Part shown: in pieces, positions 22,682 through 61,279 of the stretch
Layout: every line of letters starts with the position of its first letter
Position numbering within the stretch: position 1 is the stretch's first letter
From: Candidatus Nomurabacteria bacterium
Lineage (GTDB): Bacteria > Patescibacteriota > Saccharimonadia > Saccharimonadales > JAGQNJ01
Direction: 5' to 3'
NCBI GenBank assembly: GCA_023898625.1
Contig: CP060231.1
Location: 276,258-340,257 of the forward strand
Length of the DNA: 64,000 bases
Made by a program: the position numbers and the translations under genes
Notes under the pieces: generated by a model
What the model saw: only the letters and a program-made list of their open reading frames with translations
Told to the model about the DNA's origin: nothing
Databases searched by the model: none

Positions 22682-22719
22682 TTATACAACAAATGTGACT
22701 TAGAAGCAATTGTTTGGTA

Positions 22720-22748
22720 TTGACATTTTTTGATATTTGTGTTTAAAT
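22720..22748 (+). promoter_or_regulatory. sigma70-like promoter for the high-GC ORF
   Basis: TTGACA (22720-22725), 17-nt spacer, TTAAAT (22743-22748). Confidence 0.45.
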
Positions 22749-22782
22749 GAATTGTCCCATTTCCCGACTAACAAGGAGTATG

Positions 22783-23202
22783 ATGGAGACAATCAAGGTA
22801 GATGGCGAAGCCATCGAAGTAGGAGATATCAAGTTCTCCTACACCAACGGCGTTGCGATGGCGCACCTGCCATCGGCCGTCGTTCGTACCTGGCTCCCCG
22901 CCATGTACGAGGTATACGGCTCGCGCGAGTTCTTCTCACGTGAGATCGAATCTTTCCGGGACACCGGAAGGTGGATATCGTTCACATTCGTGAACCACTC
23001 GCTTCAGAGCGAGGTCATGCGTGTGATCGTGTTGCAGTTGGTCGAGCAATCGGCTCAACTCCATCAGGAGCGTGAGCGAGCTCGTTCACGCAAGAACCAT
23101 CCGTCCAACGGACGGAACTTGGTGGTGGCCAACCCTGACCGCTACCATGAGGCTTCGCCTCAGAAGTTCACCAACAAGCCTCCTTTCATGAGGCGTCGGT
23201 GA
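22783..23202 (+). CDS. hypothetical protein, compositionally foreign (high GC)
   Basis: ORF track 22747..23202. Start placed at ATG 22783 (or 22780) after the AAGGAG RBS at 22773-22778. Hand-counted GC is roughly 57%, against about 40% in the flanks. Basic C-terminus. Confidence 0.6.
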   Translation: METIKVDGEAIEVGDIKFSYTNGVAMAHLPSAVVRTWLPAMYEVYGSREFFSREIESFRDTGRWISFTFVNHSLQSEVMRVIVLQLVEQSAQLHQERERARSRKNHPSNGRNLVVANPDRYHEASPQKFTNKPPFMRRR

Positions 23203-23225
23203 GCTAAGATCGCTGGGGGTGACCA

Positions 23226-23280
23226 TGAGGGGTTGCAGGCCGGTTGACAACGTCGTCAACATCAAGGCCTGCGCCCCTCA
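23226..23280 (+). terminator. GC-rich nested stem-loop downstream of the high-GC ORF
   Basis: TGAGGGGTTGCAGGCC pairs imperfectly with GGCCTGCGCCCCTCA. An inner GTTGAC-AACGTC-GTCAAC hairpin sits inside. No U-tract, so terminator function is uncertain. Confidence 0.35.
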
Positions 23281-23401
23281 GGTCGCAAGCGATTAACATC
23301 TACCAACCTGGGCAGTGTGCCACTCTTTCTATTACAGAAATCGAGAAAATCACTGCCCCTAATTCATATTTCATCATTCACACTAAACAGCTTCTTGGCT
23401 G

Positions 23402-29053: not shown

Positions 29054-30100
29054 ATGTCAAACAAAGATCCAATAAATAGCTCCGAATCTCAATATTCTCA
29101 AGAAGATGTTGAGCTTTTTGTTGCAGATTGTATGCGACGAATAGGTCTTGGTCCTCAAAATGATTATTCAAAACTAGACCATTACGGCCCACCTCTTGAA
29201 CCATATCTTCACGAGGATTCTACTGCTGTTCATGACAACGAAGATAATAATCCTTATGTATTTAACCATCGAGACGAATTCTTAGAAGAATTACTTTCTT
29301 TTGCCGATCAAGGTACATCTATACTGGGTGAAGGTTTAGGGCAACTAGAACCAAACATTGGCAAAGCCGTATCGAGCAAACTTCAAGAAGTAATTATGCT
29401 ACTATCCTATGATATTGATGTAGACCTTGGTACCAATATCGGCCCTAAAGATCTAGCCCTACGGGACCTAGCAATTCTATCAATAGCCGTAAGTTCCTCG
29501 CTTGGTTTTGTCGACTATGTAACCGCGACAGGATTTGGTGCTCATAGTTTTATTGAACAAGCCAAAATAACCAATAGGAGCACTGGAACTACTGGAGAAT
29601 TTGAAGTTTGCTATGACTCTATTGATTATTATGATGATCAAGACATTTCATCAGTGAAAGAATCTGATTATGAGGAGTATCCCGATTTTTACCACTATCC
29701 TGGAAAACTCAAGATTAGTGTTAGCGATCACAGAATTGAATTCTCCTTGCAACATGAGTTGCCTGAAGCAGAGGAGCGATACGCGCAAACTATTCATACC
29801 GAACGCGGAGACATAACCACCAACACTATTTCAATTAGAATCGACAAAGATCCTAGCGCTCCACATGGGTATAGTGTTGATATTGGTCGTGACCCTCGTG
29901 AAACAAGCAAGCTATCACGTAAAGGTGACCTTCTAGGTACACTTCTTTCAGCTACGCGAGGTGACGGAAGTCACTTTTACACAGAAGCGGATGAAATTAA
30001 CGAGTCTTCTTTTAGGACTATGACACACAACCTATCCTTGCTTTTAAATTCCATAGATGAAAGGATAAAGCTGGATACTAACTTAAAGGGAGATTCATAA
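29054..30100 (+). CDS. hypothetical acidic protein
   Basis: 348-aa ORF with no motif recognised. Confidence 0.5.
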   Translation: MSNKDPINSSESQYSQEDVELFVADCMRRIGLGPQNDYSKLDHYGPPLEPYLHEDSTAVHDNEDNNPYVFNHRDEFLEELLSFADQGTSILGEGLGQLEPNIGKAVSSKLQEVIMLLSYDIDVDLGTNIGPKDLALRDLAILSIAVSSSLGFVDYVTATGFGAHSFIEQAKITNRSTGTTGEFEVCYDSIDYYDDQDISSVKESDYEEYPDFYHYPGKLKISVSDHRIEFSLQHELPEAEERYAQTIHTERGDITTNTISIRIDKDPSAPHGYSVDIGRDPRETSKLSRKGDLLGTLLSATRGDGSHFYTEADEINESSFRTMTHNLSLLLNSIDERIKLDTNLKGDS

Positions 30101-30126
30101 GTTAGTGCGGTCTATGATTTTGTGCG

Positions 30127-30873
30127 TTACTCGTTTTTACTTAAGCCTAAAAGTAGTTGTTTCATCGCGGTTGCGATGGTTGGGCTTTGAATTATGACCC
30201 CCATAACGTCTTCGCCATAACTCAAAAATGCCGTCTTATCACCGTATACGTCAACTTCTACGGATGCAGTGTATGATTCTTCTGGTAACCAGGTTCTTAT
30301 TACATTGTATATCTTATCTGATTGTGAATATTGGCGACTGTCATCCTTCTCTGTCGTAAAAGCATACGTAGCAATACCAAGATCTGCGCGTCGTTTTTTG
30401 TACTTTTCAAAATACTCATCACCTAGGGTTTGGATCTCTTTTGGTGTACGTAAGAAATAAATATCTTGTTTTGTACGCAAAGTGTCGGCATAGATCTCTT
30501 TTAACCCCTCAACACCCTCTAAAAGCCGTATACCAGGCTTTTCTGTAAAAGTGTAGAAATAGCTCAGCATTTTAGGCATAGCATGTTTTATGGCTTGCTC
30601 AGCCTCAATAAACTGCTTACGCCGTTCCTCTACAAGTTTTTCGATGGCTATTGGGTTTAATGATCGGTATGATATTTTGTTATTATTTGAACTTTTCTCT
30701 ATTAGTCCTAAAGACGCCAACTTATCAAGAATCATATACGTATTGGTGCGAGATTCTCCAGACAATTTAGAAACTTCAGGAGGGGATAGTTCACCTTTTT
30801 CAATTAATAACAGATAGGTTTTTGCTTGAGAATCAGTTAATCCTATTGTTTTAAGAAGATCTGGGGTCATCAT
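30127..30873 (-). CDS. TrmB-family transcriptional regulator
   Basis: N-terminal winged HTH (LGLTDSQAKTYLLLIEKGELSPPEVSKLSGESRTNTYMILDKLASLGLIE) plus a TrmB-type C-terminal domain. Confidence 0.7.
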   Translation of the reverse strand: MMTPDLLKTIGLTDSQAKTYLLLIEKGELSPPEVSKLSGESRTNTYMILDKLASLGLIEKSSNNNKISYRSLNPIAIEKLVEERRKQFIEAEQAIKHAMPKMLSYFYTFTEKPGIRLLEGVEGLKEIYADTLRTKQDIYFLRTPKEIQTLGDEYFEKYKKRRADLGIATYAFTTEKDDSRQYSQSDKIYNVIRTWLPEESYTASVEVDVYGDKTAFLSYGEDVMGVIIQSPTIATAMKQLLLGLSKNE

Positions 30874-30900
30874 TAAGATATTAGCATAGATAATGTGTGA

Positions 30901-30959
30901 TTGTCAATGCTATTTTGACAAACTCATTACATGTTTACATCTGTTATGTATCGATACAT
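30901..30959. promoter_or_regulatory. two palindromic candidate operators in the divergent intergenic region
   Basis: TTGTCAA-N7-TTGACAA (30901-30921) and the perfect 14-bp palindrome ATGTATCGATACAT (30946-30959). Confidence 0.35.
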
Positions 30960-30969
30960 AATCACGATA

Positions 30970-30998
30970 TTGACATTTTGAATATTATTTGGCATAAT
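30970..30998 (+). promoter_or_regulatory. near-consensus sigma70 promoter with extended -10
   Basis: TTGACA (30970-30975), 17-nt spacer ending in TGG, CATAAT (30993-30998). Confidence 0.6.
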
Positions 30999-31004
30999 GT
31001 ACGC

Positions 31005-31590
31005 AGTCGATTGAATGAGAGGCTTCAGTCGAATCGAACATTTTTGGTATAAGTGGTAGTAATAAAACTAACTCTAATGTGGTTGAACTCTCTGTTAACA
31101 GATCGAGATCCTACAATAGAGAATGAAGAATACGGTTGAGCACCGCATATTGTATTGATTGCGAAGTTGCTTTTTTGCATTTCCGCACCGCTGGGCACAG
31201 ATTGGAAACTATACACTTCATCTGTTGTATGCAATAACAGTTGTTGAACTACTAGCCACGAAGTACCATCTGCCTCGTTTAACCTGTTTGATAGCTTTAG
31301 CGTTCGATTTCAGAGAGGCTTTCACGGCGCTAAAGCTACCTTCTAGAATGTTGAATAGATAACTTACGAGAACTGATGTATTTATTGGGCATTCTTATTA
31401 AGAAGCGCCCAAGTTCGTTAAAAGCTTTGTTAGTTGTAGGCACGAGAGGTCACTTGTGAAAGATCATTTCTTTTAAATGAAGCCTCTCATTCGGATTAAT
31501 CCCAAGTGGTCTCTTATGTTAATTTACGGAGCTTTTGGGCTCGGTTTTTTGTAGCTACGTTAGAAAAAGCCGGCCCAAAGGCTTCCGATT
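31005..31590 (+). ncRNA. candidate large structured RNA or long structured 5' leader (unclassified); alternative reading is a MITE-like element
   Basis: No ORF over 70 aa. 15-bp perfect long-range complement 31013-31027/31478-31492. 11-bp hairpin 31292-31302/31328-31338. Hairpin 31385-31412. 20-bp interrupted hairpin 31530-31583. Confidence 0.4.
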
Positions 31591-31660
31591 AGTAGGAGAT
31601 CTTTGGGGCGTGCAGCCCGGCAACACCGCCAAACGCACATAAACCATCGGAGGAAAAACG

Positions 31661-32257
31661 ATGGACGTTAAGATCTTGGAAGAGCTTGCCCCCTGGGCGG
31701 GGAAGGTCCCTCCCACGAAGGAGAGTGCGGAAGGAAGCGAGAGCTTCCTGTACCGCGGTACAGTCAGCTACCGGCCGTGGGGCTATGAAGCCCTTCGGCA
31801 AAGGCATTTTCTGGTGATAGTGCCAGAAAATGGCCTGCCGTATGCGGTGGAGTGGGACGATAGTCTCACTCCTGTCGTGGAGGCCTTTATCGCCTCCGGG
31901 GTTGTGGCGCCGATGGCGCCCTCCTACCGCATCTCTCTCGACGACGTGGTCGGGTGGAGAAGAGCATGGGGTTCAGATTGGATCCCAACAAGCCGTGAGG
32001 GCGTATTGCCCATAACGGCATTGCCACAACACGTGGCTGATGCCCTGGACAGGGACGGCGGATGGACAGACATCCGTGTCGTTGGCAATGAAGTGCGGGC
32101 CACCCAGGACTACCGCTCTGGCGGCTCCTGCGGTCGTTCGCAAGAGATGGTCTTCGCTACCTTGAAGACAACCTCCGAAGGAGTGAGGTTCAAGACCACC
32201 GTCCATTCTGTCGCGTATGAGGACAGCCTGGGCAGAAAGAGAGGTACATTCACCTAA
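31661..32257 (+). CDS. hypothetical protein, compositionally foreign (high GC)
   Basis: ATG preceded by a GGAGG RBS (31648-31652). The first 150 nt hand-count to about 59% GC. The antisense ORFs on the other strand are typical high-GC artefacts. Confidence 0.6.
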   Translation: MDVKILEELAPWAGKVPPTKESAEGSESFLYRGTVSYRPWGYEALRQRHFLVIVPENGLPYAVEWDDSLTPVVEAFIASGVVAPMAPSYRISLDDVVGWRRAWGSDWIPTSREGVLPITALPQHVADALDRDGGWTDIRVVGNEVRATQDYRSGGSCGRSQEMVFATLKTTSEGVRFKTTVHSVAYEDSLGRKRGTFT

Positions 32258-32570
32258 AAACAAAAAGGCCTCGCATTAGCCTTACATCACCGCAAACAAT
32301 GCGCCTACAACGGTAAGGCACCGTAAAGAACTATTGCTGTTGCAACCCGGCAACGATAAATCACTCTGTTAGTAATAGCAGACATGAAGCAACCCATGCT
32401 TTGTGAGGGGATTTGCTTGATTCGGCACAAGCTAGAGTGTACGTTCCTGTACAGGGAATATGGCACAATACCGAGGTCATTGTGGTAGACCGCTCTTTAG
32501 AGCAAAGGCCACCCGGTTTTCTCGAATCCCGGATTGTAGCACACTCAGTGCTATGGTAAGTCGAGTTTCA

Positions 32571-32645
32571 CCCCAATCATCGCTCACCAGCTCAGGTGAG
32601 TTCGCTGAACAAGCGATTGATAGATGATTGGGGTATTTTTATTTG
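32571..32645 (+). terminator. branched intrinsic terminator
   Basis: 11-bp closing stem CCCCAATCATC/GATGATTGGGG (32571-32581/32623-32633). It encloses two small hairpins and is followed by TATTTTTATTT. Confidence 0.55.
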
Positions 32646-32649
32646 TGCT

Positions 32650-33510
32650 CTAGTCTTCAAATTCGAGGGCGTTTTTGATGCGTGAAATGCTTTGCTCTGG
32701 GTTATTGCTATTAAACCAAAGCACTTTCCAGCCTTTTTTGCTGGCAGTCATCAAGTTTGGCCGACTGTCGTCTATCAACAGTATTTCTGATGGCTGACAA
32801 TTACTCCGATCTTCTGCTTCCTCATAGATTGCTTCTTCTGGCTTTATTGCTCCGACTTCTGAAGAATCGATAATAACGTCGTAGTTGATATTAGGCACAA
32901 GATTGTGGTCAATTAATTCATTCAAAAATCCGGGCATTATATTGGTCATTAACCCGACATGGTAATTTTCAATAGCCCAAGATAATAAATCGTCCATTCC
33001 CTGAACTAGCTCTACTTCTTCTGTGTAGTACTTAGCCCAGTCAATATTATCTATATTAAGATCATTTGCGAATCGTTTATTAAACTCCTCTATGGATATT
33101 TCACCCCTGCAAACCATATCGTTATGTTGCCAAAAGGCCATTTCTACAACATCTGGCGATAAATCATATTCTTCGCTAATTCGCTCCAGAGCGCGGTGAA
33201 AAAACTGAACCAAACATCCGTTGACGTCAAAATACACAAAACGCACCCCAGATTTACTGACCTTTTTTGGCACAATTGGTGGGAATCCAGAGCCTTGAGA
33301 TTCTGATATACCCAACAGTTCGTTTAAGGTTAACCCAAGCACACTGGCTATCCGTTGAATAGTAAAAATTGACGGAGCCTTAATAGCACCTCGCTCAATC
33401 TTTGCCAGGGTAGAATATGAAATATCTGCTTTTTGGCACAACGTTTGTTGTGTCAATCCTGCCTTTATTCTGGCTTCTTGTAATTGTTTTCCGAGACCCA
33501 CCTCGTCCAT
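32650..33510 (-). CDS. XRE-family HTH domain fused to HAD-like hydrolase domain
   Basis: N-terminal HTH (LTQQTLCQKADISYSTLAKIERG). C-terminal HAD-like motifs (YFDVNGCLV ... LLIDDS). Confidence 0.65.
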   Translation of the reverse strand: MDEVGLGKQLQEARIKAGLTQQTLCQKADISYSTLAKIERGAIKAPSIFTIQRIASVLGLTLNELLGISESQGSGFPPIVPKKVSKSGVRFVYFDVNGCLVQFFHRALERISEEYDLSPDVVEMAFWQHNDMVCRGEISIEEFNKRFANDLNIDNIDWAKYYTEEVELVQGMDDLLSWAIENYHVGLMTNIMPGFLNELIDHNLVPNINYDVIIDSSEVGAIKPEEAIYEEAEDRSNCQPSEILLIDDSRPNLMTASKKGWKVLWFNSNNPEQSISRIKNALEFED

Positions 33511-33574
33511 ATAAACCTAATATTACCAGTTGTCTAGCTAAAAGGGAAGAGTAAACTAGCATTAAATGGCTAGT

Positions 33575-33757
33575 TTACTTAAGCATGTTTTCGATAGTGT
33601 TAAGAATTAACAGCATAATTACGAAGGCAAAGATTCCGGCGATTCCAGCAGTTATTGCCGAATTTTGAGCATTACCTCCGGTGCTACACATAATTTTAGT
33701 ATAGACCCATGTTCCAGCACCAACAGCAAACAATAGCGCAACAACAACAGGAGGCAT
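33575..33757 (-). CDS. small two-TM membrane protein
   Basis: 60 aa, hydrophobic. Its start overlaps the stop of the upstream HIT gene. Confidence 0.4.
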   Translation of the reverse strand: MPPVVVALLFAVGAGTWVYTKIMCSTGGNAQNSAITAGIAGIFAFVIMLLILNTIENMLK

Positions 33758-36697: not shown

Positions 36698-36789
36698 TGG
36701 CGGAAGGGGTGGGATTCGAACCCACGGTACCAGTTGCCCGGCACAACTGTTTTCGAGACAGTCCAGTTCAACCACTCCTGCACCCTTCC
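36698..36789 (-). tRNA. tRNA-Ser (anticodon CGA), CCA encoded
   Basis: Manual fold: 7-bp acceptor GGAAGGG/CCCTTCC, anticodon arm ACTGT-CTCGAAA-ACAGT, long variable arm, T-loop GGGTTCGAATCCC. Confidence 0.9.
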
Positions 36790-36881
36790 GTTAGCTACAC
36801 TATAAACTATTGCTGTTACCTCTGTAAATATGCTAATATACTTATTGTTGCAAATCCATAAGAATGTATATGTATAGTTTT

Positions 36882-36958
36882 GCACCCGTAGCTCAGCTGG
36901 ATAGAGCGTTGGCTTGCGGAGCCAGAGGCCACAGGTTCGAATCCTGTCGGGTGTACCA
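36882..36958 (+). tRNA. tRNA-Arg (anticodon GCG), CCA encoded
   Basis: Manual fold: acceptor with G1-U72, D-arm GCTC/GAGC, anticodon loop TTGCGGA, T-arm ACAGG-TTCGAAT-CCTGT. Confidence 0.85.
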
Positions 36959-38164
36959 TTCTAGACGGAGAGCCTCAAGAAGGCTCTTTTTCATCTGTTG
37001 AGACATTGTTCTAACCTTTTCTATCTCAGCAACGAAGTGTTTTGTGTTTTCCTGCAATGGTAATAGCCATTCGTTAGGTGTTATTTGCAGTTTTCCGTCT
37101 AAAAGCACTGGGTTCTGACCAATTACTAACAGTATTTCTTTCTTATCAGCTATATCACCGTTTACGAACTTAGCGTTAGCGTTCATGAACTTACTTATTA
37201 GATTAGTCATATAGTCGTACCAGCTCTCAGTGTTTTCATTACTGGTAGCCTGTTGCTTATGCAGTTCTTTTAATTCAGCCTTGAGCTTTGCAGATTTCTC
37301 TATAAAGTCTTTTTCTTCTACGAGCTTGCGAGTAGACATGTCTAACAGGGTATCTAGCTGGTCTTTTAAGCCCCTTATAGCTTGCTCCTGCATAGTTTCT
37401 ACACTCTTACGCTCTGGTATCTCAGCTTGTGCCATTTGGTTAATAGCATCCATGCTTCAATCATAGAGTTCTGGTATGAGTTCCCAGTTATTCAATTCAT
37501 CTACACATTCTGTAAATAGCTCATCTTCGGTTTTATAACCATACTTCTTAATCTGGCCGCAAGGGCGTTTACCAGTACAGTGACAGTAAGTATTTACATG
37601 TGTAACACCCTTAGAGTTAGTGCGTTCCTTGCTTTGAGCCGTAATCATACAGCCACACTCACCACAGCGTATAAAGCCACGTAGCACGAATTGTTTACGA
37701 GTTGCGAAACGCTTACCACCATGACGACCTAGTAATAGTTGGATTTTGTCGTACTCCTCTTGGGTCATTAAAGCTGGAAAATCTGCTACATACAATTTGT
37801 CTTCATCATAAGGGTCAGGCACCCAACCTGCGTAACGAACGTTACGGAACATGTAATAGAGCGATGAGCGGCCAAGTGGACCGCCACTCTTTTTCTTACG
37901 CTGAACCGTGCGATAGCCCCATTCATTATTCATAATATCTAAGATTTGCTGGACGCTGTATTCGCCTGTAAGCATTAAATCTACAGCCTGACGGAGTAAT
38001 GGAAAGCGTTCAGGGTCTTTGTATACGGTTTTATTTATACGGTCATTCAAGTAGCCCTCTGAGGCTACGCCAGTAATGCCACCAATCTTACGCTTCTTCT
38101 CATTACAACGCTTCACGTCCTTACTCAGCTTCGCTGAGAAGTATTGGGACTGGCTCATAGTCAA
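36893..38164 (-). pseudogene. large serine recombinase remnant: catalytic domain missing, split by an in-frame stop
   Basis: 37457..38164 encodes the recombinase domain plus a zinc beta-ribbon (CGECGCMITAQ...CHC). 36893..37453 encodes the coiled-coil C-terminal part. No N-terminal resolvase domain is present. The last ~22 codons run antisense through tRNA-Arg. Confidence 0.6.
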
Positions 38165-38534
38165 ATTTATCTATAAACCATATGTTGTCGTACTCTCTAT
38201 GTGCTGGATCAGTCTCATGCCAGTCACCCCAGACAGTATTTGCCCACTCTTTGGGTATGTTAGGGTTCACTGACTTGGCAATCTCAAGTTCTTCCTGAGC
38301 GTCTATTACTTGGTTGCGATACCAGTTTTCATCAGAACGAGTTTCAATTACCTCTGCATTGGTTAATGTATTTAATGCCCGTTCTTCACGACTAGCATTC
38401 TTAAAATTATCTGTTTTTGAGAGTTTAGCGTCCCACTCAAAAACCCAGCGTTCATCAAAGAAATCGGTGCCGTTGAAGTACAACGTATTCAGCTTTGTAA
38501 CCACTAATTGTAGCCATTCGTTATTATCTGTCAT
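38121..38534 (-). CDS. hypothetical protein (island-borne)
   Basis: 137-aa ORF overlapping the recombinase remnant by 44 nt. Not resolvase-like. Confidence 0.4.
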   Translation of the reverse strand: MTDNNEWLQLVVTKLNTLYFNGTDFFDERWVFEWDAKLSKTDNFKNASREERALNTLTNAEVIETRSDENWYRNQVIDAQEELEIAKSVNPNIPKEWANTVWGDWHETDPAHREYDNIWFIDKFDYEPVPILLSEAE

Positions 38535-38640
38535 TGGTGTTAGTATATGCGTCCAATAAAGCTAACTCAAATACCAGTGATTAGACCAATTTGAGATAAT
38601 AGATATATAGGGTAAGTACAAAAACAAAAGGAGTCTTATT

Positions 38641-38871
38641 ATGTTTAGCAATCCAGTGGGAAGACCCACAAAAATGAATATCAGAACGATGGTGAAGTTG
38701 GCTGACGCACTGAAGAACAACTACAGCCTGACTGACGCTTGTAAGTGGGCTAGGGTTGGCAGAACCACCTACTACCGACACATAAATAATAACGTGGTCT
38801 TCGCAACTAAGATGAATTATGCGATAGAGTGCCGTGATAAAGTGTCATTTAATTTTGGCACACTCTCCTAG
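38641..38871 (+). CDS. small HTH DNA-binding protein (resolvase/terminase-small-subunit-like HTH)
   Basis: GRPTK...SLTDACKWARVGRTTYYRH helix-turn-helix pattern. 76 aa. Confidence 0.5.
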   Translation: MFSNPVGRPTKMNIRTMVKLADALKNNYSLTDACKWARVGRTTYYRHINNNVVFATKMNYAIECRDKVSFNFGTLS

Positions 38872-39190
38872 TTCAACTTGCTGATTCGTACACGACTATA
38901 ATAAAAGTAGTGTTTCATAATTGGTAGCTCTCTGATGGTGGAAAATGGCGTTGAGGGGTCAAAAATCTGAAAAAATAATGCGTAACGATACGTAGTCAAA
39001 ATCAACCCATTTAGGTGAACGGGATATAGTGCCCTCTGTAAGCGTTCCAGGGGTCGTAGGTGAGGTTTTAAGGCAAAAGTTGAATAAAGTACCGTGTGGA
39101 AAATAAGAAGTACTTTGACATCATTTTACTCATTGACAAGCTTATGCTTTGGTTTCCCGTAACAAGTGTTTATAATTTACACTTAAGAAT

Positions 39191-39883
39191 ATGAGTGAGA
39201 GCCTACACAAACCAACTATTGCTATATTAGCCTCAGGAAGTGGCTCTACAGCCGAGACATTTATCCACGCTACTCAAGATGGTCGTGTTGATGCAGAAGT
39301 CGGTCTAATAGTATGCAATAACCCACCAGAAAAGGCAGGAATATTTGCTAGGGCTTCTAGGTTAAATGCACTCTATGGGCTTGATGTTGAAACTATAGAA
39401 ATAAGTGGTCGTACGCACCCCGATGGCAACGTGGGGCGTGGACAAACACTTAGCGAGTCATCTGCTATATGCGAGCGTATCAGTAACGGTGGCTTTGCTC
39501 ACGTAGCTCTTATGGGTTATATGAAGATGGTTCGCGGTGAACTCATTGAGGAGTACGGCTGGCAACCAATTTACAGTTCTATCTATCAAGCAAGAATGAC
39601 TAACACACACCCAGGTCCACTGCCAGAAACAGAAGACACGTACGGCATACACACTTCTGAACAAGTACTAGAGCTTGGCATGTCTGCTTCACGTCACACA
39701 GTACATCTTGTGGCAGATGGAATAGATAGGGGTCCAAAGATTGCTGAACACCCTGTGGAAGTTATTGAAGGCGATACTGCACAGAGTTTGTTTGATAGAG
39801 TTCAAGTAGTAGAAAAGGCAGCATTGCCATACGTTATAGGTAAGTTCCTGCAGGAACAAGGAGGTTATCTTGGCAATTCATGA
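39191..39883 (+). CDS. purN: phosphoribosylglycinamide formyltransferase-like
   Basis: IAILASGSGST N-terminal motif. Formyltransferase core with NTHPGPLP (variant of NIHPSLLP). 230 aa. Confidence 0.75.
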   Translation: MSESLHKPTIAILASGSGSTAETFIHATQDGRVDAEVGLIVCNNPPEKAGIFARASRLNALYGLDVETIEISGRTHPDGNVGRGQTLSESSAICERISNGGFAHVALMGYMKMVRGELIEEYGWQPIYSSIYQARMTNTHPGPLPETEDTYGIHTSEQVLELGMSASRHTVHLVADGIDRGPKIAEHPVEVIEGDTAQSLFDRVQVVEKAALPYVIGKFLQEQGGYLGNS

Positions 39884-42707
39884 GATTAGAGTCACACCTA
39901 TCGAGGGCGACCCAATTGGACACGAAGCACAGCAAGAAGCGGAACGCACACTTGGCTTAGACAGCATAGAATCAATTCGCACAGCGAAAGTATATCGTGT
40001 TCAGGGTGTGAGCGAAGAAGAAGCACACACGTTAGCGGGACAATTGCTCACAGACCCTGTGAGTGAGCAATACAGTCTTGACGAACCAGTAGGTTTCGAG
40101 ACTCCTCACGTTGTAGAAGTGGCATATAAGCCTGGTGTGATGAACCCAGAAGCATCTTCAATCATGAAAGCCGCTCAAGACCTTGGGATTAGCCAACAAG
40201 CCGTTGATTCTTCAAGGGAGTATGCGTTTTTCGGAGATGTAGAGCCAACTCAAGTCGACGAAGTGGTTGGACGATTACTAATGAACAAAACAGTTGAACA
40301 TGTTGTTACTGAAAAACCATCGTCTCTAACTTTTGAGGGGAATGTTGGACCTATCAGCATAGTTCCTATTAGAGAGGCTTCAGAGCCAGAGTTAGCAGAG
40401 CTATCAAAGGACAAGTTATTTCTTAATGATGAGGAGATGGGTGTCGTTCAGAAGCATTTCCGAAAGCTTGACCGTGATCCAACTGATGCAGAGCTTGAAA
40501 TTATTGCTGCACGTTGGAGTGAGCATTGTGGTCATAAGACGTTCAATGCAAAAGTTGTAGTTGATGGCGTTGAGAAAGAACCGCTCTACACACGTATTAA
40601 GAATGCGGCTAAAGAGCAGTTCGGTGATTTAGTAGTATCAGCATTTGGTGATAATTCAGGTGTTATGAAATTTTATGAGGGTCAAGCTATTTGTGGCAAG
40701 GTTGAGACACACAACAGCCCGTCAGCTATTGAGCCGTACGGTGGTGCAATGACGGGTAGTGGTGGTGTGTTCCGTGACATAATGGGAACTGGTCAGGGTG
40801 CTAAGACAATCATTTCTACTGATATGTTTTGTTTTGCTCCGCCAGACCTTGACGAGAGTCTTTTGCCTTCTGGCACCTTGCGCCCCGATTACCTACAAAG
40901 ACGAGTTGTTCAAGGAGTGCGAGACTATGGTAATCGTATGGGCATTCCAACGGGAAACGGCTCTGTACATTATCACGAAGATTTTAGAGCCAAGCCTACT
41001 GTAATAGTAGGAGCATACGGAATCATGCCAGAGTCACGTGCAGAAAAAGGCGAACCATTGGTCGGTGACCTAGTTGTTATTATTGGTGGCAAAACAGGTC
41101 GTGACGGTATACACGGTGCTACCTTCTCGTCAGGCGAAATGACTGACCGTACAGCTAATGTGAATTCAAGTGCAGTTCAAATTGGAAACGCAATTGAAGA
41201 AAAGCGTATGTTCGATGCTTTAATTGAAGCAAGAGATTTAGGATATATTCGTGCATTAACCGACTGTGGTGCTGCGGGATTCTCATCTGCTATCGGTGAA
41301 ATCGGAGAGAATATCGGTTTAACAGTAGATATTAGCAAGGCACCACTTAAATACCCAGGACTTGCCCCGTGGGAAATCTGGCTTAGTGAATCACAAGAAC
41401 GTATGGTTGCGGCAATCTCACCAGACAACATAGAGGACTTTCTTGCCGTTAGTCGTAAATATAATGTTGAATCCACTGTACTCGGTGTGTTTGATGGGAG
41501 TTATACCTTAACCGTGAATTACGGTGAACAAAATGTTGCAGAACTTGATTACGAGTTCCTGTCTGGCGGTCTACCGCAACGTGTTATGCAAGCACATTGG
41601 AAACGAGTTGATGTACCTGAAGTAAGTCCTGACATTCCACAAAACGAACAAGAGTGGGTTGATAGGCTTAAGGCTGTTCTCTCTCACGGTAATGTTTGTT
41701 CCAAAGAGCCAATAGTTAGACAATATGACCACGGGGTTCAAGGTGGCAATGTTGTTTCTCCTTTTGGAGGCGTAAAGCAAGATGGACCAAATGACGCTCT
41801 GGTCGTACGACCTATGCTTGATAAGCCTTATGGTGTTGTTCAATCCCACGGGATGAACCCAATACTTAATAGGTTAGACCCATTTGAAGGAACAGTCTGG
41901 GCTATTGCTGAGGCTGCAGCAAATTATGTTTCTGCTGGCGGCAACATTGATGAAGCAGCAGCAGTTGGTAACTACATTTGGCCGTTCCCAGATGAAGAAG
42001 CTATGGGTTCACTAGACCGTTCTGTTGACGCTGCTGTAGAAATGATGCAACGGCTGAAGCTTCCTGTTATATCAGGCAAAGACAGTCTCTCATCAACCTA
42101 CCGAGGCAAAGACGGACAAGTTATCAAGATTCCGCCCGTTTACACAATGTCTATATTTGGTCGCATACCTGACGTAGAGAAGACTATGACAAGTGACATA
42201 AAACAAGCAGGATCAACCCTTGTCTTAGTTGGAAATCTAGGCGAAGGAATGGCGGGGTCAGCTTATTATGATATTGCTGGTGGGAGTAGCAACAATATAC
42301 CGCTTGTTGATAAAGAAACACTACCAGCAGTGCTTGGTTCCGTACATCAAGCTATAGTCGGTGGCAAAGTCCTTGCTTGTCACGATATAAGCGAAGGTGG
42401 TGTAATCTCGGCTGTTGCAGAAATGTGTTTTGGTGGCAATGTTGGCGTAGAACTTGAGCCTAATAATGTATCAGTCTCTGAAATGGATAAGTTCCTGTTT
42501 AATGAAACGGCTGGCTGTTTTGTTGTGGAAGTTGAAAGTGATGAAGTAGCACAAGAATTATTCAGCAATGTTCCATACCAAAAGCTTGGTCAAACAACTA
42601 CTGATGAGACTATTCAGGTCCGTGAGCAAAATGGAGTCGTCTTTACTGTAGGTACGGACGAACTTAAGCGTGCATGGCAAGCACCTATGAAAGGGATTTT
42701 TCACTAA
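39870..42707 (+). CDS. purL: phosphoribosylformylglycinamidine synthase subunit PurL with two N-terminal PurS-like repeats
   Basis: TTG start 5 nt after an AAGGAGG RBS. The first ~150 aa hold two PurS-like modules. The rest is small-PurL type (AIR-synthase-like repeats, SESQERM motif). 945 aa. Confidence 0.85.
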   Translation: MAIHEIRVTPIEGDPIGHEAQQEAERTLGLDSIESIRTAKVYRVQGVSEEEAHTLAGQLLTDPVSEQYSLDEPVGFETPHVVEVAYKPGVMNPEASSIMKAAQDLGISQQAVDSSREYAFFGDVEPTQVDEVVGRLLMNKTVEHVVTEKPSSLTFEGNVGPISIVPIREASEPELAELSKDKLFLNDEEMGVVQKHFRKLDRDPTDAELEIIAARWSEHCGHKTFNAKVVVDGVEKEPLYTRIKNAAKEQFGDLVVSAFGDNSGVMKFYEGQAICGKVETHNSPSAIEPYGGAMTGSGGVFRDIMGTGQGAKTIISTDMFCFAPPDLDESLLPSGTLRPDYLQRRVVQGVRDYGNRMGIPTGNGSVHYHEDFRAKPTVIVGAYGIMPESRAEKGEPLVGDLVVIIGGKTGRDGIHGATFSSGEMTDRTANVNSSAVQIGNAIEEKRMFDALIEARDLGYIRALTDCGAAGFSSAIGEIGENIGLTVDISKAPLKYPGLAPWEIWLSESQERMVAAISPDNIEDFLAVSRKYNVESTVLGVFDGSYTLTVNYGEQNVAELDYEFLSGGLPQRVMQAHWKRVDVPEVSPDIPQNEQEWVDRLKAVLSHGNVCSKEPIVRQYDHGVQGGNVVSPFGGVKQDGPNDALVVRPMLDKPYGVVQSHGMNPILNRLDPFEGTVWAIAEAAANYVSAGGNIDEAAAVGNYIWPFPDEEAMGSLDRSVDAAVEMMQRLKLPVISGKDSLSSTYRGKDGQVIKIPPVYTMSIFGRIPDVEKTMTSDIKQAGSTLVLVGNLGEGMAGSAYYDIAGGSSNNIPLVDKETLPAVLGSVHQAIVGGKVLACHDISEGGVISAVAEMCFGGNVGVELEPNNVSVSEMDKFLFNETAGCFVVEVESDEVAQELFSNVPYQKLGQTTTDETIQVREQNGVVFTVGTDELKRAWQAPMKGIFH

Positions 42708-43490
42708 ATGAGCAACCTAGAAGTATGCGTACTAAAGACGGACGGTATTAACTGTGATGAAGAAATGGCGAATGCTTTTCAAGTAGCTGGGGCTACACCT
42801 GAAACCGTACATATTAACCAACTGCGAAGTGGCGAACGTCAGCTTGACCAGTACGGTATTCTAGCAATACCAGGGGGTTTCTCTTACGGAGATGATATTG
42901 CTTCAGGTAAGGTGCTGGCAACAGAGCTTACGTCCTATCTATCTGACCAGTTACAAGATTTTGTCGATAAAGGTAAGCCTGTTATCGGAATCTGTAATGG
43001 CTTTCAGGTGCTTGTTAGGACTGGCTTGTTGCCAAATCGCAAGCTGAATGAACAACAAGTAACTCTTGCTGATAATGAAGTTGGAAGATTTGAGTGTCGC
43101 TGGATTGACCTAGCAGTTGGTCGGTCAGCGTGTAAGTTTGTAAGTCCAGAAGATTTTGCAGAACAACCAATTCCAATGCAAACGGCTCACGGTGAAGGTA
43201 GATTCTTTGGTGGTGAAGATGACATTCGGGAGCTAAAAGAAAACGGACAGTTTGTTTTTCGTTATACTACGCCTGACTTAGGACAGCCGAGTGGCTATCC
43301 TGAAAATCCAAATGGTGCAGTAGACGATATTGCAGGAATTTGTGACCCAAGTGGCTTAGTGCTTGGTATGATGCCACACCCTGAACGCTCAGTGGCTGCT
43401 TTTCACCCACACCGAGTACGCACAGAAGCTGCACGAAACGCAGCAAACACAATTTTTAGTAATATCGTTACTTACGCAAAGGAGATGTAA
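42708..43490 (+). CDS. purQ: phosphoribosylformylglycinamidine synthase glutaminase subunit
   Basis: Class I glutamine amidotransferase motifs (PGGFSYGDD, GICNGFQ, MPHPER). Confidence 0.9.
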   Translation: MSNLEVCVLKTDGINCDEEMANAFQVAGATPETVHINQLRSGERQLDQYGILAIPGGFSYGDDIASGKVLATELTSYLSDQLQDFVDKGKPVIGICNGFQVLVRTGLLPNRKLNEQQVTLADNEVGRFECRWIDLAVGRSACKFVSPEDFAEQPIPMQTAHGEGRFFGGEDDIRELKENGQFVFRYTTPDLGQPSGYPENPNGAVDDIAGICDPSGLVLGMMPHPERSVAAFHPHRVRTEAARNAANTIFSNIVTYAKEM

Positions 43491-44623
43491 TGACTGAACG
43501 AAGAGGACCGATACAGGATGTAAATATTGAGCTTGGTGATGATGTTTCTAAAATGCTGTATGAAGCTTCAAAGCAAACCCACGACAACCGACCAGGCTTG
43601 CTTGTTGAGTTTCACGAATCATTTTCTGGGCTACGAGCAATTCCAGGCACGATGCTTAAAGACGTAGATAATATGTATCTTAATCTTGCATTTGATGGTG
43701 TCGGAACAAAGGTTGAAGTATCAGAAAGGCTTGATGACCATTCAGTTGTAGCACACGATTTATTTGCAATGGTATGTGATGACGCAGTTGTTCGGGGAGC
43801 TGAACCAGTTGCGATAGGCTCAATCTTAGATGTACGGCAGCTTAATGACACAAAACACACTAGAACGGCAGTTAGACAACTATCACAGGGCTATGTTGAA
43901 GCAGCTAAGGCGGCTGGTGTAGTGGTCGTTAATGGTGAAGTTGCCGAACTTGGGGATAGAGTTGGTGGTTATGGGGATTTCAATTATAACTGGGGCGCTA
44001 CGGTACTTTGGTTTGCTCATAAGGACAGAATACTTACGGGTCATGAGATTCAGCCTGGCGATTCACTAGTAGGTCTTGCTGAACACGGTTTCCGCTCAAA
44101 TGGCATTACAGACGTAAGAAAAGCTATGCTGGAACACTACGGACCACAATGGCAAGACGTAGTAGTTAAAGAACTCGGCGAACTTTCATTAGGTAAACTT
44201 GTACAGAAACCATCAATTATTTATTCACGATTCATATCGGAACTTACAGGTGGCTATGACATTGATAAAGAGCCTAAGGCTGTGGTAAGCGGTGTGGCAC
44301 ACATTACTGGTGGTGGGCAGCCAAGTAAGCTAGGCCGAATGCTTGAGCCGTCAGGACTCGGCGTTACTATTGACACACCAATTGAGCCACCACGCATAAT
44401 GACGGAAGTGCAAAAGCTGCGAGGCTTCTCCGACGAAACAGCATACGGTAAATGGCATTTGGGTTCTGGTATGGTTATTGCCACTTCTGAACCAGAAAAA
44501 GTACTCGCAGAAGCAGAAAGCTTTGGACTATCTGCACAGACTATTGGGCAAATCACAGACGAGCCAGGTATCCGTATCAAGAATCGTGGTGCAGTTCAAG
44601 ATTCAGAGTGGCTAAGCTTCTAA
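43490..44623 (+). CDS. purM: phosphoribosylformylglycinamidine cyclo-ligase (AIR synthase)
   Basis: DGVGTK motif and PurM N/C domain architecture. Start overlaps the purQ stop (TAATG). Confidence 0.85.
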   Translation: MTERRGPIQDVNIELGDDVSKMLYEASKQTHDNRPGLLVEFHESFSGLRAIPGTMLKDVDNMYLNLAFDGVGTKVEVSERLDDHSVVAHDLFAMVCDDAVVRGAEPVAIGSILDVRQLNDTKHTRTAVRQLSQGYVEAAKAAGVVVVNGEVAELGDRVGGYGDFNYNWGATVLWFAHKDRILTGHEIQPGDSLVGLAEHGFRSNGITDVRKAMLEHYGPQWQDVVVKELGELSLGKLVQKPSIIYSRFISELTGGYDIDKEPKAVVSGVAHITGGGQPSKLGRMLEPSGLGVTIDTPIEPPRIMTEVQKLRGFSDETAYGKWHLGSGMVIATSEPEKVLAEAESFGLSAQTIGQITDEPGIRIKNRGAVQDSEWLSF

Positions 44624-44685
44624 AGTAGAAAGCTTATGCTTTGTATCTGTTGGTCGGTAGAGCATAATTAGATTAGGTACTAATT

Positions 44686-45683
44686 ATGATCATAAACCAA
44701 CATTTCGTAGATTTACTATCAACTCTTACGCCTACAGCTTCGGAGAAAACAGGCTATGCTTCCCACAGGACTTCAATTGAAGCGAAGCTTGAGTCTTCGT
44801 TTAATGTAACGTTCACCATGGAAACAGGTTCATTTAGAAGTGGTACGGGCGTGAGATACCACACCGACTTAGATGTACTTGCCTCAATACCTTCCACTTA
44901 TCAAAAAGACAATTCTTACAATATGTTATTGGCTATTAAAAAGCCTTACAAGAACGGTATGGTGAAAGCGGAATATACATCAGAACACCATCTGTGGTCT
45001 GTGCCTTTAGTGGGAACAAGACCATTGAAATCACACCTGGATATTATAAGTATCAGACTGATTACCGCTATAACGTTTACAAAATCCCAGATTTTGATGG
45101 TGATTGGCAAATTGCAACACCGTCAGCACATATAGCCTACGTTAATGGCGTGAACAACAGGTTGGATAAGAAAGTTAAACACGTTATTCGCTTAATCAAA
45201 GATATTAAATATGCACATAATATCCCTATATCTTCGTTTTATCTTGAGATGAGGACAGCAAAGCATTGCGATGATGAAACATTCATATCTTACGCAGAAG
45301 ACGTACACAATACGCTCAATAGGCTCGTTAATGACGAGCTGGCGTTAATGCAAGACCCTGTAGGAATCGCAGGATATATTGAGCCTTGCAGTACTGACGC
45401 AAAGAAGACCGAAGCACTTTCAAATCTTACATCTGTCAGAAATCGTGCTAAATGGGCTATTGAAGAAGAAAAGGCTGGGAATCACACAAAGGCTCTTGAA
45501 TGGTGTTTTATTGAAGTTGACTCAAAAGAAGGCGGCGTCAAAACGTTGCGAGAAGGATTATCAGAGCTTGTAGCACGACAACAAGAAATAAACGGAACCG
45601 CATACATACCTTCACCAAAGGCTCGTGAAAGAGCTGAGAAAAACATAAAGAATGGCCGTCAGAACTACGAGGTTGATGAGTAA
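44686..45683 (+). pseudogene. SMODS/CD-NTase-like nucleotidyltransferase interrupted by a -1 frameshift
   Basis: Frame 1 (44686..45135) carries GSFRSGTGVRYHTDLDV (the GS...DxD NTase core). The continuation (W..ATPSAHIAYV...IRLIKDIK...SFYLE) is in the -1 frame from about 44943 (ORF 44994..45683). The shift maps to T-AAA-AAG at 44937-44943. Confidence 0.6.
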
Positions 45684-45902
45684 TTTTAAGCAAAGTATAT
45701 AGGTAAGCGTGGTGGGTAGTGTTTTATAGGGCGTTTGAGCCATTATAAGCAAGGAACAGTGACCTAACCTGCTCTAGTATGCTGTACCAATTAGTATTTA
45801 CCATAACATCGAGTATTATTCTCATTATTTTAACCATAACTTGTATTGACAAACGGAAAATACTGCGAGACAATTACTGTAAATAGCAATCAAGAAATAA
45901 TT

Positions 45903-51598: not shown

Positions 51599-51609
51599 TA
51601 AATTGTTTT

Positions 51610-51740
51610 GAGCGGCGCGCCAACTTCGTTGGCACGAAATTGGGCGGCGGCGGAAAGCGAGGGCGGGCAAAAATTCCTTCCCCCCAACCCCCTTCCTTTT
51701 TGCCCGCCCGAGCGTTTCGGTTTTGCGCGCGAAGCGCGCA
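51610..51740. other. GC-rich noncoding segment with three consecutive hairpins
   Basis: GCCAAC-TTC-GTTGGC (51619-51633). A 13-bp stem GGGCGGGCAAAAA/TTTTTGCCCGCCC (51661-51673/51697-51709) with a 23-nt C-rich loop. GCGCGC-GAA-GCGCGC (51725-51739). Confidence 0.6.
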
Positions 51741-51870
51741 ATCATTCAGGGTTTTGCTCAAAGAAAGTTCGAACATCAATCAAAAACGACCGCCATATTA
51801 GAAATTTAGACATCATTCGCATGTATACACAGTAATAGCCGTTTAATAGTACAGGTTAGCCATTAATAAA

Positions 51871-53267: not shown

Positions 53268-53672
53268 CTATGTAGTTGAAACTTTATTAAGAACAAACTT
53301 GACAATTACTTGAGCAAGAGCGACGATCACTAATCCAACTATCGCATAAAGAATAGTATTTTTTGCTCCACTGACGTTTCCAGAATCGCCCCCAGAAGTG
53401 ATGTACTTAAGCCCTCCGACGATTATCATAATAACCGAAACAACACCTACTATTAACGAAAATATATTGATAACGGTAGCTATTATGTCATTGACTGTAC
53501 CTTCTGCGCCACTTACATCACAGCTCTGATCGGTACTCAAACAGCTTCCTTGTTCAAGGCCTTGTTGAATATTTGGTGTTTGAGCATGAATACTCACCGG
53601 AATAGCTAGAGGTACTAGCGCTAAAGAAAGGCTGATGAGCCAGGCGTTTATTTTATTAGTTAACTTTTTCAT
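53268..53672 (-). CDS. T4SS pilin-like protein (TrbC/VirB2-like), paralog 6
   Basis: Signal peptide and a Cys pair (CLSTDQSC). Conserved C-terminal block GGLKYITSGGDSGNVSGAKNTILYAIVGLVIVALAQVIVKFV. Confidence 0.7.
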   Translation of the reverse strand: MKKLTNKINAWLISLSLALVPLAIPVSIHAQTPNIQQGLEQGSCLSTDQSCDVSGAEGTVNDIIATVINIFSLIVGVVSVIMIIVGGLKYITSGGDSGNVSGAKNTILYAIVGLVIVALAQVIVKFVLNKVSTT

Positions 53673-53749
53673 AATATTAGGTATTTTCCTTTCGTTATTG
53701 GATTAATTACACTTTACTATATTTTTATAAGCATTTTCAAGTAGTTATT

Positions 53750-54160
53750 CTATAATTTATTAAGAACAAATTTAACGATAGCTTGCGCCATAGCGACAAC
53801 CACCAATCCAATAATTGCATATAGGATGGTGTTTTTGGCGCCACTAACGTTAGCAGAATCGCCCTGAGATGTTATATATTTAAATCCACCAATTATTATC
53901 ATTATTACCGCTGTGATTCCCACTATCCAAGAAAAAATATTAATAACCGTGGCTATAGTACTGTTTATTTTTCCTTCTGTTGCACTAGAATCAGTAGTAC
54001 AACTACCTCCTGTTAGGGTAACACCCTGGCAAGCCGCTTCCTTCGGATCTAAGGCTCTTACTGAAGCTGTATGCAAGGATACACCCAAAAATGTCATGAC
54101 TAACATCAAAATAAAAATTGTCATTCTTATTCTCATAATCTTATCCTTTCGTTTAATCAT
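53750..54160 (-). CDS. T4SS pilin-like protein, paralog 5
   Basis: Same C-terminal block (GGFKYITSQGDSANVSGAKNTILYAIIGLVVVAMAQAIVKFV). The alternative start at 54136 has an AAAGGA RBS. Confidence 0.7.
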   Translation of the reverse strand: MIKRKDKIMRIRMTIFILMLVMTFLGVSLHTASVRALDPKEAACQGVTLTGGSCTTDSSATEGKINSTIATVINIFSWIVGITAVIMIIIGGFKYITSQGDSANVSGAKNTILYAIIGLVVVAMAQAIVKFVLNKL

Positions 54161-54546
54161 TATAGTCTAGTTATTACAAATGACACTATTGCTTGAGCTA
54201 TCACAACAACCACTAGGCCAATAATTGAGTACAGGATTGTGTCTTTTGCGGAACTAACTTTTCCGGAATCTCCATTCGACACCATATACTTGAAACCACC
54301 CACCATTATCATTATAACGCTGGCAACCCCTGCAATCATAATCATTATTTCTATAACCTTAGTAATTATTCCGTTTGGACCAAGTAGTGGGTTAGTGGTA
54401 GTGTGCGTCTGGCATGCGCTTGAACTGGAGCTACGACCACTGCAAACTCCTGAAAAAGGATCCTCAGCATAGGTTATTCTTGGATAAAAGACAATCAGCC
54501 CGATCAATAACCCTATTACAGTAATTACAAGTGTCAGCCTACTCAT
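54160..54546 (-). CDS. T4SS pilin-like protein, paralog 4
   Basis: GGFKYMVSNGDSGKVSSAKDTILYSIIGLVVVVIAQAIVSFV. Cys pair CSGRSSSSSAC. Confidence 0.7.
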   Translation of the reverse strand: MSRLTLVITVIGLLIGLIVFYPRITYAEDPFSGVCSGRSSSSSACQTHTTTNPLLGPNGIITKVIEIMIMIAGVASVIMIMVGGFKYMVSNGDSGKVSSAKDTILYSIIGLVVVVIAQAIVSFVITRL

Positions 54547-54845
54547 CCGAATACCCTCCCAATCACAAAAGATACAATTACATTTGCTAGAATAGCAACC
54601 ACCAGCCCGATCAAAGCATAAAGTATGGTGTTTTTAGCTTTGGCGGTCTTTTGAGGGTCTCCAGCAGAAAGTATATAGCTTATTCCTGCAATGATAATCA
54701 CGATAACCGCAACCACTCCTGCAATAGTAAATACCAACTGCAACAAGACCTCAATCTGTCCGTTTGTAGCTTCGGACTTAGGAATAACCAATTCGTTTGG
54801 GTTGGCTATACTTTCAGCAATATATTTTAAATACATGTCTATCAT
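54543..54845 (-). CDS. T4SS pilin-like protein, paralog 3 (short)
   Basis: AGISYILSAGDPQKTAKAKNTILYALIGLVVAILANVIVSFV. 4-nt overlaps with both neighbours. Confidence 0.65.
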   Translation of the reverse strand: MIDMYLKYIAESIANPNELVIPKSEATNGQIEVLLQLVFTIAGVVAVIVIIIAGISYILSAGDPQKTAKAKNTILYALIGLVVAILANVIVSFVIGRVFG

Positions 54846-55213
54846 TTTATGCTATTTCCGATAAATGACACTACAGAAGATGCAACAATAGCTACTACTA
54901 AACCAATTAGAGCATTCAATATGGTATCTTTAGCCCCCTTAGTTCGATCTGGCTCCCCATTGCTTGTCATGTATACAAAGCCTCCGTATATAATAAAACC
55001 AACCGACACAAACCCGACAACATAAAGCAGTATATCGATCCCCGCTAGGCCAATTCCCCATAAATCGTTAATCTGGTTGGGATCGAATGTTGGTACGCAT
55101 TTTCCTAAAGCATCAGTTTTACCATCAAGATATTCAAACCAATGCGGAAACCCAAAGAACGAGTTTGCTGAATCCATTGGATTACAGGCAAATATTTTAA
55201 ATAGACCGATCAA
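54842..55213 (-). CDS. T4SS pilin-like protein, paralog 2
   Basis: GGFVYMTSNGEPDRTKGAKDTILNALIGLVVAIVASSVVSFI. Confidence 0.65.
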   Translation of the reverse strand: MIGLFKIFACNPMDSANSFFGFPHWFEYLDGKTDALGKCVPTFDPNQINDLWGIGLAGIDILLYVVGFVSVGFIIYGGFVYMTSNGEPDRTKGAKDTILNALIGLVVAIVASSVVSFIGNSIK

Positions 55214-55908: not shown

Positions 55909-55914
55909 GATAAA

Positions 55915-60278: not shown

Positions 60279-60286
60279 GTTAATAA

Positions 60287-61243: not shown

Positions 61244-61279
61244 TTTGACGATAGTCATCGCTGGTGGGCAAAACAACAC

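Follow-up and report, generated by a model that had tools for sequence, protein, structure and literature searches.

What is a near-consensus promoter doing in front of some 0.6 kb of DNA that lacks any long open reading frame (ORF)? This question is raised by a segment near the middle of a 64,000-nucleotide (nt) stretch, here termed the window, from Candidatus Nomurabacteria bacterium (GCA_023898625.1, contig CP060231.1, positions 276,258-340,257 of the forward strand). Coordinates are window positions throughout, and copy counts as well as promoter and repeat scans refer to this 64-kb window of a Saccharibacteria genome of ~0.94 Mb. The ORF-free segment is flanked by two divergently oriented regulator genes and then adjoins a block of 60% GC, in a window with a mean GC of 40%. 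Window positions 30001-33600 are 100% identical to contig JAXLZW010000001.1 (939,581 bp) of GCA_046350715.1 and to many metagenome contigs, and the nearest relatives of the neighboring TrmB-type regulator in the genome collection are Saccharimonadales.

A preliminary description of this DNA proposed that the segment might be a novel large RNA or a mobile element. The segment is neither a demonstrable new RNA class nor a demonstrable mobile element. The reading we favor, tentatively and with a probability of roughly 0.45, is that it forms a ~655-nt untranslated, cis-acting 5' leader, which may affect the stability or processing of the mRNA of a species-specific orphan gene of 198 amino acids (aa); we infer the transcription, processing and regulatory effect of this leader from the DNA. 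The genomes of Saccharibacteria and other ultrasmall bacteria are compact and contain, to our knowledge, almost no characterized regulatory RNAs, and ~1 kb of non-coding sequence spent on one orphan gene is unusual for such genomes. Leader control, whether by RNA processing or by DNA inversion, would if true be a rare handle on how an epibiont regulates lineage-specific, foreign-looking genes. Being restricted to one species, the element is of value as a candidate for transcript mapping rather than as a discovery. The features of the locus are as follows.

30970-30998, plus strand: promoter, sigma-70-type TTGACA-17-TGgCATAAT, with predicted start at A31005
31005-31027, plus strand: predicted 5' end of the transcript and left arm L (31013-31027) of a perfect inverted repeat
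31028-31477, plus strand: enclosed interior of 450 nt, non-coding, host-like at ~40% GC, with no significant plus-strand structure
31292-31338, plus strand: 13-bp hairpin displaying L', a near-copy of L, in its loop (mean pair probability 0.91)
31385-31412, plus strand: composite hairpin of 6 + 5 bp (pair probabilities 0.84-0.89)
31478-31492, plus strand: right arm R of the closing helix, perfect complement of L
31501-31609, plus strand: big hairpin of 109 nt with 47 bp, 9 of them G·U, by fold prediction
31529-31550, plus strand: weak terminator-like hairpin and T-run inside the big hairpin, by motif scan
31644-31664, plus strand: small predicted hairpin; its loop includes the ribosome-binding site GGAGG, and the AUG is part of the stem
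31661-32257, plus strand: 198-aa orphan gene, 60% GC, with a coding signature
32258-32649, plus strand: 3' non-coding region, with a terminator hairpin (32570-32634) and T-run at its end

Promoter, transcription unit and orphan gene

The near-consensus promoter of the preliminary description was recovered at 30970-30998. TTGACA and CATAAT, spaced by 17 nt and accompanied by an extended -10 TG, match 11 of the 12 consensus positions, and this is the sole site of at least 11/12 on the plus strand of the window. Shuffled sequence yields ~2.9 sites of at least 11/12 per 128 kb (both strands), so that the probability of such a site arising by chance in the 0.8-kb gap is ~2%, or ~0.1% when the TG is included. 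The species carries two haplotypes that are ~98% identical and recombine in blocks; in the second of these, six single-nucleotide polymorphisms (SNPs) fall within 30923-31004 and leave both promoter hexamers and the TG untouched.

By motif scan, no promoter-like site was found between 31350 and the 198-aa gene. Likewise, no convincing terminator was found between the promoter and this gene; the sole terminator-like site of the leader (31529-31550) is weak, and its T-run is paired within the big hairpin. A ribosome-binding site, GGAGG, precedes the ATG of the gene by 7 nt, and this start codon lies in a predicted 6-bp stem. The codon changes between haplotypes comprise 17 synonymous and 15 non-synonymous changes in the annotated frame, whereas the two remaining frames give ratios of 3:29 and 3:28, and because of this synonymous excess the ORF is considered a real gene. 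The lack of a promoter-like site after 31350 and of a convincing terminator, together with the GGAGG and the coding signature, suggests that the promoter feeds the gene and thereby supports the leader reading. Since a real gene that has a strong ribosome-binding site follows with no convincing terminator in between, the segment reads as a 5' leader and not as a free-standing RNA. The simplest reading would be a single transcript of ~1.64 kb in which the first ~655 nt are an ORF-free leader. Its end is probably marked by the hairpin and T-run at 32570-32645, where an inverted repeat is followed by ATTTTTATTT.

The claim that the segment holds no ORF over 70 aa also proved correct, the longest being 69 aa on the minus strand and 67 aa on the plus strand. 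Stop codons occur throughout all six frames at a random-like density, and no small ORF with a Shine-Dalgarno sequence was found on either strand of 31005-31530. A Pfam search of the six frames gave no match, nor did a search of the concatenated frames against 5.8 billion proteins at E values up to 0.1. A decayed protein-coding gene, for which the preliminary description had suggested a translated search, was rejected on these grounds, as no frame shows similarity. The failure to recognize a known RNA family was borne out as well. With Rfam 15 at gathering thresholds the segment has no match, and the window gives only four tRNAs elsewhere; at E values up to 10 the segment gives only microRNA-model hairpin matches of 23 bits, compared to thresholds of 56-60. 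No second copy of the segment was found in the window or in distant Saccharibacteria loci, and BLASTN against phages and plasmids detected no relative.

The downstream gene looks foreign in its codon usage, since GC at its third codon positions is 67% compared to 28-39% in neighboring host genes (GC at positions 1/2/3 is 59/50/67). No relative of the protein was found outside the species by word-indexed search or exhaustive HMMER search, and Pfam, PHROG, PADLOC and viral contigs gave no match. The AlphaFold model (pLDDT 42) was not used for fold search. Of the 44 haplotype differences in the gene, 29 fall within 126 nt (31724-31849), and the flanks can be 100% identical. Targeted mutagenesis of the type mediated by diversity-generating retroelements was rejected for this cluster of 29 substitutions, which is not adenine-specific and has no template repeat; two alleles recombine here in blocks. 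The coding-region window 31801-32100 is unusually structured (z-score, z = -7.1).

The 3' region (32258-32649) folds with z = -4.2 on the plus strand and -3.5 on the minus strand and includes a minus-strand terminator-like hairpin (32283 to 32265); this region may serve as a 3' untranslated region, shared or convergent, or constitute a separate RNA. Its haplotypes differ at just 2 of 392 positions, compared to a divergence of ~10% at the 4-fold sites of the genes to either side. The leader and the 3' region are no more complementary to each other than shuffles. A 14-nt direct repeat, TGCAGCCCGGCAAC at 31611-31624 and TGCAACCCGGCAAC at 32341-32354, has its copies on either side of the GC-rich gene, 730 nt apart. 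An integron or att reading of this repeat was rejected, as by our estimate chance alone would give ~0.3 of them in 2 kb, and the repeat is probably a coincidence.

A long-range helix and a long hairpin in the leader

The leader exceeds chance in two parts only, a 15-bp helix with an alternative partner inside it and a hairpin of 47 bp. The 15-bp complement had been described as perfect, and the arms at 31013-31027 and 31478-31492 are indeed 100% complementary over 15 nt. The 15-mer occurs at these two places only, and perfect inverted repeats of at least 15 nt within 700 nt number two in the whole window, of which the other is AT-only. The complement is thus not a matter of chance. The L-R duplex is predicted at -28.2 kcal/mol and is extended by G·U pairs and four further pairs to the first transcribed bases, such that the helix would join the predicted 5' end of the transcript to 31478-31497 and loop out 450 nt. 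Neither arm has a SNP in either haplotype.

The shorter elements within the loop were likewise present as described. The 11-bp hairpin (31292-31302/31328-31338) extends to 13 bp, and the composite hairpin at 31385-31412, recovered with the pair probabilities listed above, is equally good on both strands. The internal near-copy of the left arm, L' (31304-31324), which was proposed to pair alternatively with the right arm, is real; it includes the outer flank of the left arm, lies in the loop of the 13-bp hairpin and is predicted to pair with R at -21.0 kcal/mol, compared to -28.2 kcal/mol for L-R. A near-copy as good as L' was obtained in 30 of 2000 shuffles (1.5%).

A folding program had been proposed as a check, and its outcome was divided. 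The whole segment (31005-31590) folds far better than shuffles (z = -5.66 on the plus and -5.49 on the minus strand), but the 450-nt interior (31028-31477) does not on the plus strand (z = -1.01, with 18 of 100 shuffles folding equally well); on the minus strand it reaches z = -3.07. The 300-nt windows inside the looped domain are ordinary in a window-wide scan of 425 such windows, and the 15-bp helix and the big hairpin account for nearly all of the fold excess of the segment. The picture of a globally structured large RNA is therefore not supported. G·U pairs in the domain 31009-31496 number 21 on the plus strand and 11 on the minus strand, and the interior holds a weak terminator-like hairpin on the minus strand (31148 to 31130).

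The preliminary description also listed an interrupted hairpin of 20 bp at 31530-31583. A hairpin is present, but its size was understated: it spans 31501-31609, and on the plus strand its 109 nt form 47 pairs, 9 of them G·U, at a predicted -59.3 kcal/mol. The minus strand forms 38 pairs, none of them G·U, at -32.7 kcal/mol. The 300-nt window with this hairpin (z = -6.9) ranks third of 425 across the 64 kb. The nine G·U pairs are distributed over both arms, and no A·C mismatch occurs. A neutrally decaying DNA palindrome would be expected to accumulate both kinds of mismatch, and because the asymmetry is of the G·U kind only, the hairpin appears to be maintained as plus-strand RNA; with base composition allowed for, we estimate the asymmetry at p ~0.002-0.01 under neutral decay. 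This bias points to selection on the predicted hairpin as plus-strand RNA. Three haplotype SNPs are consistent with the fold, one changing a G·U to an A-U pair (31554) and two lying in the loop (31557 and 31558).

The divergence of the two haplotypes along the locus is uneven. Differences amount to 6/131 (4.6%) in the 131 nt preceding the start, 7/596 (1.2%) in the leader (31005-31600), 44/597 (7.4%) in the gene (31661-32257) and 2/392 (0.5%) in the 3' region (32258-32649). At 4-fold sites they amount to 10/103 (9.7%) in the 198-aa gene, 10/102 (9.8%) in an HTH-HAD gene and 1/101 (1.0%) in the TrmB gene; two nearby genes, including a HIT gene, show zero differences. The low divergence of leader and 3' region fits constraint.

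According to the leader reading, the 15-bp helix and the 47-bp hairpin would be cis-acting elements that influence the fate of the mRNA. Burying of the 5' end is a classic means of mRNA stabilization in 5'-end-dependent decay, and a 5'-terminal helix in which the first transcribed bases are paired could shield this mRNA from degradation. The 47-bp duplex upstream of the ribosome-binding site could be a processing or roadblock site for a double-strand-specific RNase such as RNase III; alternatively, as it overlaps the weak terminator, it could be a weak attenuator. Helix and duplex together would then set the amount of translatable mRNA for the foreign gene. Comparable devices are the RNase III sites in the leaders of phage lambda N and E. 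coli pnp, the processing stems of rRNA and the 5' stem of ompA. Leaders of the lambda N, pnp and ompA type resemble the present one in having a long near-perfect duplex before the coding region and a helix starting at the first transcribed bases. They differ in that there is no sequence relationship, the looped-out interior of 450 nt has no counterpart in them, and the present case consists of predicted folds.

Several points weigh against this reading. The 15-bp helix is entirely Watson-Crick, compared to 19% G·U pairs in the neighboring big hairpin, and an all-Watson-Crick helix is more typical of an inverted repeat acting at the DNA level than of an RNA helix. An interior with no excess plus-strand structure leaves 450 nt with no proposed role. 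The G·U excess of the big hairpin could stem partly from a G/T-rich plus strand. The low divergence of the leader and the 3' region could also be a recombination tract, as a mosaic pattern runs through the locus, with zero differences in the HIT gene and 1% at the 4-fold sites of TrmB. Of the seven SNPs in the leader, six agree with the fold, a result that chance alone gives about one time in six; the SNP at 31377 breaks a predicted pair, and that at 31606 disrupts a pair at the base of the big hairpin. Finally, the whole 1.7-kb unit was found in this species only, with no homologues elsewhere that could show covariation. Among homologues of the adjacent TrmB-type regulator, identity falls from 99% straight to 65%; those at 65% or below have different neighbors and upstream gaps of ~260-310 nt, and the locus is absent from them. 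A TrmB search of the genome collection gave only proteins of 28-32% identity.

Other readings of the segment

The main rival, which we consider unlikely, is an invertible leader segment in which the 15-bp repeats are recombinase sites and inversion of 450 bp would alter the leader RNA and switch the fast-evolving orphan gene on or off. In both the cwpV switch and the flgB flagellar switch of Clostridioides difficile, the repeats come after the promoter, and the DNA that inverts is devoid of promoters and ORFs (PMC2784873, PMC5386303); the repeats of the flagellar switch are 21 bp long (PMC5386303). The invertible segments are 195 and 154 bp, respectively, and inversion through RecV has been shown for them (PMC2784873, PMC5386303). 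The present locus shares this layout, with a promoter followed by a repeat-flanked segment free of ORFs and promoters in a long 5' leader, and control in the two switches acts after the start of transcription. A function at the DNA level would suit the perfect Watson-Crick arms, SNP-free in both haplotypes, and the interior without plus-strand structure better than one at the RNA level. The minus-strand signal of the interior (z = -3.07) and its terminator-like hairpin at 31148 to 31130 would also fit, weak as the latter is, and divergence at the locus peaks in the 198-aa gene, as it does in many phase-variable genes. By contrast, 450 bp with 15-bp arms does not match the dimensions of the two switches cited (154-195 bp with 21-bp arms), and the precomputed Pfam lists for the window outside 42.7-45.7 kb contain no Phage_integrase or Resolvase, so that no tyrosine or serine recombinase is seen nearby. 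Contigs from ~25 assemblies are collinear with the window and show a single orientation, no inverted copy being present; this is a weak test of orientation, as assemblies keep only the majority form. Contig ends coincide with haplotype SNPs and not with the repeats. A functionless spacer, or a fully decayed gene left behind by the insertion of a foreign gene, would make the repeat and the hairpin historical accidents. This too is improbable, if perhaps a little less so. The interior is indistinguishable from shuffles, the sequence is species-restricted, and recombination tracts can explain the low divergence. Yet no frame retains protein similarity, all have stops at a random-like density, and a 15-bp complement together with a 47-bp hairpin of 9:0 G·U bias, placed behind an 11/12 promoter with TG in a compact genome, is not a chance arrangement.

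The two readings of the preliminary description fare less well. A free-standing large non-coding RNA of ~500-600 nt, released from a precursor and switching between L, L' and R pairings, is quite unlikely. The parts of this proposal that stood are a non-coding segment, a strong promoter, helices beyond chance and the absence of an Rfam family. The closing helix resembles the processing stems of stable RNAs, the loop-displayed L' could compete for R, the whole segment folds with z = -5.7, and the weak terminator-like site at 31529-31550 could provide an end. The segment thus has the size (0.5-0.8 kb), lack of ORFs and closing long-range helix of ROOL, GOLLD, OLE, HEARO and raiA. It differs from these in having no Rfam match, an unstructured interior (z = -1.0 on the plus strand, with unremarkable 300-nt windows in the domain) and a junction to the downstream gene; moreover, known large RNAs form families, whereas no search found a homologue of this segment outside one species. 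The T-run of the weak terminator, paired within the larger hairpin, also speaks against a released RNA. Less probable still is a remnant of a non-autonomous transposon resembling a miniature inverted-repeat transposable element (MITE), bounded by the 15-bp repeats as terminal inverted repeats. Correia/NEMIS, ERIC and RUP elements and MITEs are multi-copy and have target-site duplications. The likeness consists of terminal inverted repeats and a ~100-nt unit folding as a long RNA hairpin; a perfect 15-bp inverted repeat around 450 bp of non-coding DNA without plus-strand RNA structure and a lineage-specific locus of 1.7 kb would fit such an element. Each unit, however, occurs once in the 64 kb, and no clean target-site duplication was found. 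The GATT reported on both flanks did not hold as a direct repeat, as the left flank reads ...CGATT and the right GGATT..., with the right GATT shifted by one base. In addition, L' contains TCGATT, which for the left arm lies outside the arm, and a target-site flank is not expected within an element. Short-read assemblies from many samples cross the segment, which at least 12 independent assemblies traverse without a break, and no presence/absence polymorphism was seen. Searches of phage, plasmid and viral collections found no related element. In viral contigs, the 15-mer had 46 matches, all of them single, due to chance and with no extended similarity, and two other 18-20-mers had none. A metagenome scan for both arms (12 + 12 nt, variable gap) returned MWVZ01009297.1 and MWVZ01008417.1, which share a 12-mer only and were rejected as unrelated coincidences.

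These two metagenome contigs carry ~460-bp elements of their own (MWVZ01009297.1 at 1060-1560 and MWVZ01008417.1 at 180-665) with terminal inverted repeats of ~40 bp, CAGCCTGAGAGGCTTCAAGGCTTCGCCTTGAACCTCTA.... They form a family in ORF-poor contigs of another organism that is unrelated to the segment.

A more far-reaching version of the leader reading would be a Saccharibacteria-specific switch, in RNA or DNA, that gates an acquired and diversifying gene, either by R choosing between L and the decoy L' or by inversion of the 450 bp. We regard this as a long shot. If true, this switch would represent a control element of a new type for the candidate phyla radiation, and the gene would be one used in epibiont-host interaction.

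Other observations in the window

Upstream of the promoter, the palindrome TTGTCAA-N7-TTGACAA (30901-30921) overlaps the -35 element of a promoter-like site of the TrmB-type gene on the minus strand (30907 to 30878), and it is likely an operator. A SNP of the second haplotype (30923) lies directly beside it.

A second GC-rich island (22717-23350, 56-59% GC) contains a 140-aa orphan gene on the plus strand (22780-23202) with the ribosome-binding site AAGGAG. Its product has no Pfam match and bears no relation to the 198-aa protein. The gene is preceded by a promoter-like TTGACA-17-TTAAAT, with a -35 context, ATTGACATTTT, that is an 11-mer identical to that of the promoter at 30970-30998. At the 3' end of the gene (~23203-23300) lies a very stable GC-rich hairpin with no Rfam match, and 23101-23400 is the most structured 300-nt window of the 64 kb (z = -10.2). 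A further GC-rich, non-coding island at 51600-51745 holds a 23-nt imperfect inverted repeat (51651-51673/51697-51719) and additional GC-rich palindromes; in Rfam it gave chance-level microRNA-model matches only.

A region of ~8.9 kb (36959-45826) adjoining tRNA genes (36701-36955) is missing in other strains of this species and is a strain-level island or deletion. Its genes include Formyl_trans_N and FGAR amidotransferase/AIRS domains of purine synthesis. Further downstream, six small T4SS_pilin genes on the minus strand (~53268-56394) are followed by TrbL, PrgI, TraC-like and TraG-like genes (57412-64000); this array is a type IV secretion or conjugation-like cluster situated ~20 kb from the segment.

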